Position numbers and translations under genes: made by a program. DNA of 64,000 nucleotides from an uncultured Desulfocapsaceae bacterium (lineage in GTDB: Bacteria; Desulfobacterota; Desulfobulbia; Desulfobulbales; Desulfocapsaceae), in contig CAZLGM010000001.1 of assembly GCA_964558875.1 (NCBI GenBank), forward strand, positions 5,447 to 69,446, written 5' to 3'. The notes under the pieces are model-generated. The model made no database searches. It was not told the origin of the DNA and saw only the letters and a program-made list of their open reading frames with translations. How positions within the stretch are numbered: the stretch's first letter is position 1; each line of letters starts with the position of its first letter. Of the stretch, positions 15,634-18,600 are shown one piece after another.

Positions 15634-18600
15634 TCAGCCCAATATCCCACCCAACAGCTTATCCACATCCGACTCAAAGGCGGGGTGCCTCTTCAACCGC
15701 TCATTGATGCCCTGATACCAGTCCAGATCAGACTGACCATTGATACTGATCAGGGTACCACTTGTCTCAGGTGTCTGCAGGATATCTGAATCATTACCGA
15801 GCAGGACTCCCATCTCAAGTAAAATAGGCTTAAACAACGGGTCATCACCAAATATGGGAATAAACTCTTCAATCCAGAAAAGCAGGGTCTCACTATAACG
15901 CGATTCCATGTCTGTTAGAAAATCGGCCAGAATATTGACGCTGTCGGTATAAAAAACTTCCAGCTCTGCAAAAAATAAGGGCCAGGAACTGTATTGCTTA
16001 CCGACAAAATCGATAAAGGCCTCAGCATCTTCGTAGATTGAAGCAAGCCACCAGGGATCGGTCGGCCGGGCATCATCACCTGCTCCAGGGTCTGTTCCCA
16101 TTGGAACAGTCTCGCCACCCGGTTCACCTGGATTCGGGTCAATTCCTTGACCAGTCGGGTCCTCGAAGGCGCCCATATCGACACCGGTACCGTCATCCCT
16201 GGCTTCACCTCGCTGATCGGTTGTTAAGCCATCAGGGTTTGATCCGGAGTTCAGGGCCGGGCTGCCAATATACAGCACATGGGTTTGGGTCGGCCCGCCA
16301 TTATCCGCCAGAGGGCCGAGTCCGGGGTCAGCTCCAACAATATTGCCAAGACCGTCACCGCTGACACCGGAGTCGGGAACCGCATGGCCGCCGTCATCGG
16401 ATTCGATCAGGGAATGATCGACGCTCAGGGTACCCCCCGGTTCGTGAAAAAGATCGTTTCCTGCAGTATCAGACGTATTATTGCCGATAATGGAAGAGAC
16501 AATATCCATCGTTGCAAATGAACCCAGAACAACACCGCCGCCATTATAGCGTGACCTGTTGTCACCAATAGTTGAATTCTTGATGCTGGTGATTCCGGAA
16601 AAGCTCTTTATCCCCCCTCCATCGGAATTGGTTGTTTCATTGCCGGAAATGGTTGAGTTCTGGACGGTAAGCGTTCCTGAGTAAGTGAAAATACCGCCGC
16701 CACTCCTAGTTGATGTGTTGCCGGAGATGGTGGAGGCGGTTATGGTCGCTGTCCCGGAATTATTGATGCCGCCGCCGAAATCGTGCGCCGTGTTGTTCGA
16801 AACGGTGGAGCTGTCAATGGTTACTGTGCCGCTGTTATTGATACCGCCGCCATGACTGTCAGAAGCGGCAGTGAAGTTATACTTGGCGGAATTGTTGCTG
16901 ATGGTTGACTGACTGATGGTGGCTATTCCCGTATTTGCAATACCGCCGCCGCTGTACTTGGCATTATTTTCCGAGACAGTGGAGCCTGTGATGGTAATAG
17001 TACCGGAATTGAAAACACCACCGCCGTCACCAGAGGCGTAACTGTACGAGACGGTGGAGGCGGAGATCGTCAGGTTTTCCCTGTTGAGGATGGCGCCTCC
17101 GTCGTTGCCGGAAGAACCGTTCTGCAGGATCAATCCGGCCAGGAGAACGGTGGACTGGGTGGTACCGCTGGTATCATCGACATTGAAAATTCTATTGTTG
17201 TCCCCCCCGTCAATGGTGATTTTGTCATTTCCATCAATGGTAAGGTTTTTGTCAATGACCAGCTCACCTAGAACTGGATCAAGATTAATTGGGCCATCCA
17301 GGTCGGGATGAAAGAGAATGGTTCCCTTGTCGGTAGCATTAGCAATTGCCTCCCGCAGGGAGTAGTCGCCGGCAGAGAAGTCTCCGTCGTTCTCATCGAC
17401 CAAGGTATCCACCAGGTGATTGCCCTCCCAGGCGCCCATATCCACACCACCCACATCTCGATTAAAACCGGCGCCCCGCTGGTCATTGGCCAACGCGTCC
17501 GGATTGGAGCCGGAATGCAGGGCGGGGCTTGAGCCCATGAGCGCATGGGTCCGGGTAGAGCCGCCGTTGTCGGCCAGGGGCCGCAGTCCGGGATCAACAC
17601 CGACGATGTTGTCGTTGGTACCATTGGCGATGGTATGACCATTCGGGTCCTCGATAAGCGAGTGGTCAGCATTCAGGGTACCACCGGAGTGAAAGACATC
17701 GGCTCCGGCCAAGGCTGTGTTGTTGCCGACAATGGTTGAATTTAAGGTCGCATCGCCGTTGACCTGAAAAAGCCCGCCGCCCCTTCCAGCTGTAGCGCTG
17801 TTTTCGGCAACGGTTGAATTGTTGATTGTCGCTGTGCCGGAGTTGGCAATACCACCGCCGTCCCGCCCGGCGCTGTTACCGGACAGTGTCGAGTTGGAGA
17901 CGGTGAGGATGCCGGAGTCGGTATTGCTGACACCGCCACCGTCCTTGTCGGCATGATTTCCGGATAAGATTGAGCTGTTGACGGTGGCGGTTGCCTTGTT
18001 GAACAGGCCTCCACCGTTTTTGCCCGCCGTATTCTTCTTCAGAGTGGAATCGGTGATGGTAACCACTCCGGTACCGATATTACTGATGCCGCCGCCGCTT
18101 GCATCCGCCGTGTTCTTCTTGAAAGTTGAGTCGGTGATAGTGATCGCACCTGAACCCCGATTATGGACACCGCCGCCTTTGCCGGTGGATGTCCAGTTTT
18201 CCGAGAATGTCGAGCCGGTGATGGTGGCAGTGGCCTTATTGTATAGACCGCCACCGTCCTCCATGGCTGAGTTGTTTTTAACAGTTGAATCGGTGATTGT
18301 AAGGTTGGCTCCGGCTCCTGAATTTCGGATACCGCCGCCATTCATATAGGCCGCGTTGTCCTTGAAAGTTGAGCCGGTGATGGTAGCTGAAGCCTTGTTG
18401 AACAGTCCGCCGCCATCTTCAATTGCAATGTTGTCTTTTACCGTTGAATCGGTAATGGTGAGTGTAGCGCCGGTTCCGGTGTTATGGATTCCGCCGCCGT
18501 TTTTGGCGTTGTTTACAGAGATGACCGAATCACCATCGATGGTGACGCTGGCCCCTTTATTGGAGATACCGCCGCCGCTTGTATCTGCCGAGTTCTTCTT

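Follow-up and report, generated by a model that had tools for sequence, protein, structure and literature searches.

In this study, we analysed a window of 64,000 nucleotides from an uncultured Desulfocapsaceae bacterium (assembly GCA_964558875.1, contig CAZLGM010000001.1, positions 5,447 to 69,446), in which two giant genes end in a common C-terminal module that had been singled out in an earlier note made from the sequence alone. Giant gene B (15634..31392) and giant gene A (31525..43320) are the two largest reading frames of the window, both lie on the minus strand, and both proteins run from the N- to the C-terminus through a MAIYALEDRILFDAAGP leader, an acidic spacer, a DUF4347 domain, beta-helix modules and the C-terminal module. 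DUF4347 (PF14252) follows the leader with 157.9 bits. On the leader itself the LEPR-XLL model NF012209 scored 12.6 bits (cut-off 17; E 0.081; positions 5-20 of 24 aligned), no Sec signal peptide is visible on the giants, and a search for RTX repeats (HemolysinCabind) gave no match, whether in the last 300 aa or in the N-terminal part of the giants. Each giant is a single gene carrying an in-frame stop codon within a conserved motif: giant B comprises about 5,250 codons with a TAA at 27445-27447 (GNIVG-stop-NP), and giant A about 3,930 codons with a TAG at 35131-35133 (L-R-M-stop-N-G).

The minus-strand ends of giant B (15637-16056) and giant A (31528-31950) form a common non-repetitive module of about 140 residues, with 94 identities over 137 positions (69%) in a gapless alignment (BLASTP E 5e-72) and no difference in the final 10 residues. 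Upstream of this module, the last choice-of-anchor-Q motif of giant B (16162..16329, minus strand) caps the final beta-helix module, and a Pro/Gly/Asp-rich spacer (16057..16161, minus strand) connects this cap to the module; such spacers of about 30-43 aa stand before the module in all copies found. The choice-of-anchor-Q model NF041518, a 58-aa motif with a threshold of 25 bits, scored 81.5 bits in giant B and 83.2 bits in giant A just before the spacer. Since the same motif closes every beta-helix module in the giants, internal ones included, it predicts by itself no sorting signal. A frame change was also observed inside the last choice-of-anchor-Q motif of a giant of a sister species (genome G002; L005, about 1114-1291), just upstream of its C-terminal module.

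The module is built of three parts. In giant B, a helical bundle of about 85 aa (15802..16056, minus strand), acidic and aromatic-rich with a net charge of -13 and 18 F/W/Y residues, is followed by a variable linker of about 25 aa (15727..15801, minus strand) and by a tail formed by the last 30 aa, DLDWYQGINERLKRHPAFESDVDKLLGGILG (15637..15726, minus strand), with the stop codon at 15634-15636. Sequence comparison with the other copies places the corresponding parts of giant A, on the same strand, at 31693..31950 (bundle), 31618..31692 (linker) and 31528..31617 (tail, last 30 aa). AlphaFold2, run on a six-sequence alignment (the module alignments are shallow, with 6-7 sequences), predicted five or six helices over residues 1-85 with a predicted local distance difference test score (pLDDT) of about 80-90, disorder over the linker (residues 86-114; pLDDT below 50 in giant B), and, in the tail, a pair of short helices with an HPAF turn between them, where pLDDT was only about 55. 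Aromatic residues account for 16-18 of the 85 bundle positions, and the bundle is strongly acidic; the tail has a net charge of -1 with amphipathic helices and no basic end. No transmembrane (TM) segment was found in the module (maximum KD19 1.12). The end sequences quoted in the earlier note were recovered by minus-strand translation (last 140-141 residues), its estimate by eye of two-thirds identity with an identical extreme terminus agrees with the figures above, and its description of a helical end unlike the beta-helix body is matched by the model. Its view of a single domain of about 140 aa holds insofar as the end is non-repetitive, but the end falls into three parts, of which only the last 30 aa are signal-like.

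Conservation is distributed very unevenly over these parts. Among five full-length copies, identity was 63-90% in the tail, 38-65% in the bundle and 8-48% in the linker. The invariant or near-invariant residues of the tail give the consensus WYxGxxxRLxxHPAFxxxVDxLxxx[IL]Lx, directly followed by the stop; the tail ends at the stop codon in all seven copies (7/7), and the distance from motif to stop is constant. Between copies, 16-27 of the 30 tail residues were kept, with synonymous changes in 7-15 of the conserved codons, and tail nucleotides differed by 12-46%. In the comparison of giant B with the copy on contig C171 of the same genome, for example, 24 of 30 tail residues were identical, 15 of them with changed codons, at 69% nucleotide identity. 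This combination of protein-level conservation with heavy synonymous turnover indicates that the tail is under purifying selection, and not the product of recent gene conversion.

The genome assembly (G000; 3.4 Mb, 354 contigs, 94% complete) contains four tails and as many heads. Two of each belong to the window; the remaining tails are on C171 and C36, the remaining heads on C8 and C118. A head reads AIY(A/L)LEDRILFDAAGP, with an acidic stretch and then DUF4347 behind it. The fragment on C36 consists of Pro-rich repeats and then the tail alone (to nt 18728). The giant on C118 (from nt 4940) has a head, beta-helix modules, a choice-of-anchor-Q cap, a bundle-like stretch and Pro-rich repeats that run into the contig edge; its bundle-like stretch weakly resembles the bundle's second half (44 columns in hhalign, E 0.0027). 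The Pro-rich repeat units, approximately GGKTEPTPPQFQVPGKTEPGVPPTSGKIPTGPT, are common to C118 and C36. Because the C118 giant enters the same Pro-rich repeats as C36, these contigs are, judging from their sequences, very probably the two ends of a fourth paralogue that was split by the assembly inside the repeat, and C8 (head) and C171 (tail) very probably pair likewise as one gene, so that each cargo gene has a single head and a single tail. For the same reason, the idea that C36 belongs to an unrelated cargo with only the tail in common was rejected. The linker of the fourth paralogue would thus have grown from 25 to at least about 380 Pro-rich residues (approximately 15-fold), with a diverged piece of the bundle kept. 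Given this expanded linker and diverged bundle, the predicted bundle and the tail are separable parts, and only the tail appears indispensable.

Outside this genome the module is rare. Among 40 relatives it was found only in G002, which is one of two further species in the genus and holds both the short-linker and the Pro-rich form. A profile search of 1.84 billion representative proteins recovered only the window's own products and the G002 copy, apart from one plant-type leucine-rich repeat protein, which was rejected as a spurious match amplified by repeats. A more distant copy was present on the metagenome contig PJEL010051445, where the module is 43% identical and its tail 63-77% identical to the other copies; there the module is directly followed by a gene for a TolC-like lipoprotein (67% identical to the TolC of the window) and then by a giant head, MAIYALEERILFDAA. 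Searches of Pfam and NCBIfam at E<=1-10, with the last 300 aa or with the module alone, returned nothing beyond choice-of-anchor Q, a sequence profile search of the Protein Data Bank (PDB) with the module gave only noise (E>0.3), and Foldseek against the PDB with the module model gave no match (best E 1.4). These searches, together with the lack of a TM segment noted above, bear out the proposal of the earlier note that the module corresponds to no known sorting or secretion domain. The note had described the module as common to both giants, which both indeed carry it, but four genes of the genome do so, not two; and the module is found outside the two paralogues, always travelling with the TolC/HlyD/M50 cluster described below, so that the case which the note had named as refuting, a domain absent beyond the two paralogues and without partner linkage, does not hold. 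By its sequence, the module is a family without detectable relatives and would constitute a new entry in domain databases.

The cluster in which the giants are embedded reads, in minus-strand transcription order, TIGR03032/DUF4915-TPR protein, TolC, giant A, giant B, adaptor 1, adaptor 2 and M50-HlyD. Upstream of the giants, the TIGR03032/DUF4915 protein with its C-terminal TPR domain (45721..47196, minus strand) precedes a TolC-family outer-membrane channel of the lipoprotein type (43853..45508, minus strand), which is the sole TolC-like tblastn match in the genome. Downstream lie HlyD-type periplasmic adaptor 1 (13942..14805, minus strand), which is conserved in sister cassettes, HlyD-type adaptor 2 (12535..13917, minus strand), whose N-terminal extension of about 190 aa gave no match to a Pfam domain, GAF included, and an M50 (HExxH) membrane protease fused to an HlyD adaptor (10268..12347, minus strand). 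The protease part, in which HExxH is present, and the HlyD part of this fusion are in different frames near 11440-11475; the G002 ortholog is one intact frame of 693 aa. The M50 protein matched the daptide RRE-type leader peptidase model NF041824 with E 1e-26, which lies below the cut-off. As for a transport motor, no HlyB/PrtD-type ABC exporter over cut-off was found in the genome (best TIGR01846, 389 bits against 725), no ABC exporter stands next to any HlyD or TolC gene of the genome, and the genome has one SecA, a housekeeping protein of 851 aa, with no secondary SecA.

The module, a close M50-HlyD ortholog and the TIGR03032-TPR protein are all present in G000 and G002, and none of them was found in G001 (87% complete). 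The fusion of a TIGR03032/DUF4915 core to three TPR repeats occurred only in this genus; TPR-less TIGR03032 genes were found in two other genomes of the family (about 39-40% identity), both without an M50-HlyD match or the module. On this basis we put forward the TIGR03032-TPR protein, speculatively, as a candidate reader of the C-terminal peptide. Literature searches on TIGR03032, or on M50 or site-2 proteases combined with HlyD, returned nothing.

A small open reading frame (ORF) of 162 aa (15124..15612, plus strand) separates giant B from the adaptor genes, converges on the 3' end of the giant and is kept at the same position in G002 with 77% identity. It gave no Pfam or NCBIfam match, and its AlphaFold2 model was poor (pLDDT 42), with a predicted order of elements, a-a-b-b-b-a-b-a-b-b, that recalls GNAT-type acyltransferases; if real, a GNAT-type protein would echo the cargo modification of the HlyC type. 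On the other flank of the cluster, directly beside M50-HlyD, lies a fusion of a bactofilin domain with an AAA_22/ExeA-like ATPase (8829-10235, plus strand), which is kept there in G002 (60% identity) and shows a weak match to the PEP-CTERM-system ATPase TIGR03015.

Related cassettes are more widespread than the module. Of 300 genomes sampled across the phylum, about 20 have M50-HlyD fusions about 30% identical to that of the window, as do 10 of the 40 close relatives; a search of genome contigs with the M50 part alone recovered only the sister species. M50-HlyD almost always occurs with a homolog of adaptor 2, often with adaptor 1 and TolC, and very often adjoins giant ORFs. One cassette subtype adds a truncated SecA-like ATPase, and its giants carry RTX repeats, located near their C-termini. 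This ATPase (SecA_DEAD, PP-bind, P-loop; about 680 aa) lies between M50-HlyD and a short adaptor at L037 (11641-13686), L038, L039 and L058 (7124-9160). At L033 (12727-19998), an M50-HlyD cassette is directly followed by a two-partner secretion (TPS) pair, that is, a ShlB/FhaC-type transporter and a TPS-domain giant with an ESPR signal.

The cargos of these cassettes resemble each other at their heads and differ at their ends. Five N-terminally complete cargos share with the giants of the window, by eye, an LE-RI(L/V)xDA motif followed by DUF4347. At the C-terminus, four SecA-type giants have an 'LVAGxxGW' motif and then a strongly basic K/R-rich stretch (+5 to +11); a hydrophobic patch in these tails was considered as a TM anchor and rejected as too short. 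Two TolC-type giants, L050 1608-7592 from the same family and L034 2-2815 from the same order, have a common C-terminal module of 130 aa, which is their best-conserved region and reads ...SQYIHDTVNHSWERVERWYG..., a variable linker and ...PVFxxSxxLxxQLS+ADxxxxE(M/V)D+L, again a conserved part, a linker and a conserved tail. These sister-cargo modules were not found in literature searches. A tail motif common to the cargo of all cassettes, which had been seen by eye, was dropped after tests with a hidden Markov model (HMM), Smith-Waterman ranks and hhalign. The general rule that emerges, as far as these sequences suggest, is that cargos of this machine keep conserved, lineage-specific and non-repetitive C-terminal modules.

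We favour the reading, at a probability of about 35%, that the module is a lineage-specific docking module of giant beta-helix surface proteins of the LEPR-XLL/DUF4347 type and serves as a tether. A short, strongly selected motif that is locked to the free C-terminus, occurs once per cargo gene and is linked to the cluster supports a putative terminal element that a partner reads. Genomic context suggests, but does not establish, a role in secretion, anchoring or partner binding, for which the earlier note had proposed the module as a candidate; machine binding, tethering and the direction of export are what we infer from it. In the favoured scheme, the giants would be handled by the adjacent pump-less machine of TolC, three HlyD adaptors and the M50 protease; the element read would be the 30-residue tail, a two-helix motif at a fixed distance from the free C-terminus; and the tail would remain attached to some part of the machine or envelope, with an adaptor, TolC or the TPR protein as candidates, and so tether the end of the fibre that is exported last. 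The acidic bundle of helices would act as a stopper, and the Pro-rich spacers would thread outward, a mirror image of what the N-terminal retention module does in LapA. Three points fit tethering: the N-terminal leader is universal across the cassettes while the C-terminal modules vary; a stalk-like Pro-rich expansion adjoins the tail in the fourth paralogue (stalks are usually placed beside an anchored end); and the spacers, 30-43 aa before the bundle and 25 aa after it, are compatible with one segment passing through a duct of TolC length.

Extending this to the related cassettes, one might propose a hitherto undescribed TolC-dependent export without an ABC transporter or second SecA, in which an N-terminal leader would be addressed to the M50-HlyD platform, the cargo would thread N-terminus first and a C-terminal stopper-and-tether would hold it on the cell, with cassette subfamilies having evolved different tethers, of which the present bundle and tail would be one; we regard this wider scheme as doubtful. 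Several results weigh against the docking module. The tail HMM, searched against 2,895 ORFs, gave nothing above noise and left the C-termini of other-cassette cargos undetected; a Smith-Waterman rank test of the tail against other cargo C-termini gave a group p of 0.21, with high ranks for no cargo but L050 (first of 281 C-termini) and L034 (top 3%); and hhalign of the tail with the sister-cargo modules was not significant. As the hydrophobic patch of the SecA-type cargo tails is too short for a TM anchor, the argument by analogy for N-to-C export is weak. A tail of 30 aa could not by itself close off a channel, and in the fourth paralogue the bundle has diverged. The range of the module is one genus and one metagenome contig, and the system may be decaying in this assembly, with lesions in both giants and in M50-HlyD.

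The main alternative, which we consider possible, yet on the unlikely side, is that the tail is a leading-end signal like that of a type I secretion system (T1SS): uncleaved, it would engage an inner-membrane platform (M50-HlyD or adaptor 2) and enter the adaptor/TolC duct first, the acidic bundle would not fold until it is outside, perhaps with cations, and would then serve as a ratchet or folding nucleus, and the N-terminal leader and DUF4347 would be the retained end. A conserved motif with amphipathic helices at the extreme C-terminus, TolC with HlyD-type adaptors and the lack of a Sec signal peptide all fit this picture, as do the sister-cassette giants with RTX repeats near their C-termini, C-terminal RTX repeats being a hallmark of C-terminus-first type I secretion; with a charge of -13, moreover, the bundle could, like RTX blocks, remain unfolded inside the cytoplasm. 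The genome, however, has no ABC transporter of the HlyB/PrtD type, the window giants lack RTX repeats, the tail is far better conserved than classical T1SS signals, and with a confidently foldable bundle lying 25 aa away from the signal, one would expect threading from the C-terminus to stall. Furthermore, the universal N-terminal motif of the cargos and the likeness of the M50 protein to RRE-type leader peptidases point to recognition at the N-terminus. The conserved LEPR-XLL-like leader may be the real export address, which weakens a simple reading of the module as a C-terminal secretion signal.

It is improbable, in our judgement, that the module is instead an extracellular functional or assembly domain apart from the export machine, devoted to fibre oligomerisation, beta-helix capping or the binding of mineral or cation surfaces. 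The confident helical fold of an acidic and aromatic-rich bundle would suit such a domain, the narrow lineage range is what a niche-specific adhesive tip would lead one to expect, and related cassettes elsewhere do without the module, their cargo ending differently. On the other hand, the best-conserved part is a short tail locked to the free C-terminus and not the folded domain, strong divergence of the bundle and a huge insertion in the linker are tolerated while the tail is kept, and sister cargos also keep conserved terminal modules, which suggests handling by a machine over ligand binding. Far less credible is a non-functional relic, that is, a decaying cluster in which the common end reflects nothing but a recent duplication of the giants. 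The in-frame TAG and TAA, the frameshift in M50-HlyD and the frameshift just upstream of the module in G002 could be taken in this sense, but the tail protein is conserved at 12-46% nucleotide difference, the module is kept in four paralogues, in the sister species and in a relative at 43% identity, and M50-HlyD is intact in the sister species. The three lesions of the window may represent real decay or errors of consensus or assembly in repeat-rich contigs of a metagenome-assembled genome.

Giant surface proteins with LEPR-XLL/DUF4347 heads are common, and we know of no established mechanism for their export and retention at the cell. In this respect, the locus offers a strongly selected short linear motif at a free C-terminus, a natural experiment in the form of an approximately 15-fold expansion of the linker beside that motif, and a motor-less version of the M50-HlyD cassette. 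The 30-residue tail could thus provide a small handle on which end of the cargo the machine reads, and on whether the other end tethers the fibre.

Among known systems, LapA of Pseudomonas fluorescens, a giant T1SS adhesin with an N-terminal retention module that works with LapE, LapG and LapD, offers a close parallel: both cases involve a giant repetitive adhesin without a Sec signal, a TolC-family channel and a dedicated protease encoded nearby, and in both the fibre could be retained in the channel by a small folded terminal module with its flexible linker. However, the module is at the opposite terminus here and shows no similarity in sequence or fold, no HlyB-type ABC transporter over cut-off was found in the genome, and the protease belongs to the intramembrane M50 type and is fused to an adaptor, where the LapA system has a periplasmic BTLCP. 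The signals of HlyA and other RTX proteins resemble the tail in being helical, in lying within the last 50-60 residues or so, and in their context of membrane fusion protein and TolC without an N-terminal signal peptide, but here there is no HlyB-type ABC partner, there are no RTX repeats, and the motif is strongly conserved, whereas T1SS C-terminal signals are poorly conserved in sequence. LPXTG/sortase, PEP-CTERM/exosortase and GlyGly-CTERM/rhombosortase systems likewise use an extreme C-terminal tag common to paralogous surface proteins of one genome, with Pro-rich spacers before the tag and a linked gene for a dedicated membrane protease; the tail differs from these tags in having no TM helix, no basic end and no match to an NCBIfam sorting signal (E<=1). 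From the C-terminal domain of type IX secretion and the autotransporter barrel the module differs by an all-helical model and by the absence of a Pfam or NCBIfam match.

The C-terminal modules of the L050/L034 and SecA-type cargos resemble the module of the window in that they too lack repeats and are conserved at the very end of giants that otherwise diverge, although no significant sequence relation to it was found. For the machine itself, the nearest description is that of Kamneva, Poudel & Ward 2015 (PMC4452313), the accessible text of which outlines a locus of secondary SecA_DEAD, Peptidase_M50-HlyD, GAF-HlyD, HlyD and OEP genes related to type I secretion, leaves its role open, and there names no cargo and describes no C-terminal cargo module. 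Compared with that outline, the cluster of the window has in common M50-HlyD, the OEP channel and two adaptors, one of them plain and the other with a cytoplasmic extension at its N-terminus, and relatives of the cassette in the phylum include the truncated SecA; the window cluster differs in having no secondary SecA and no GAF match in adaptor 2. Taken together, terminal modules for the targeting or tethering of TolC-dependent giant adhesins are already known in kind, and what is new is the sequence family itself.

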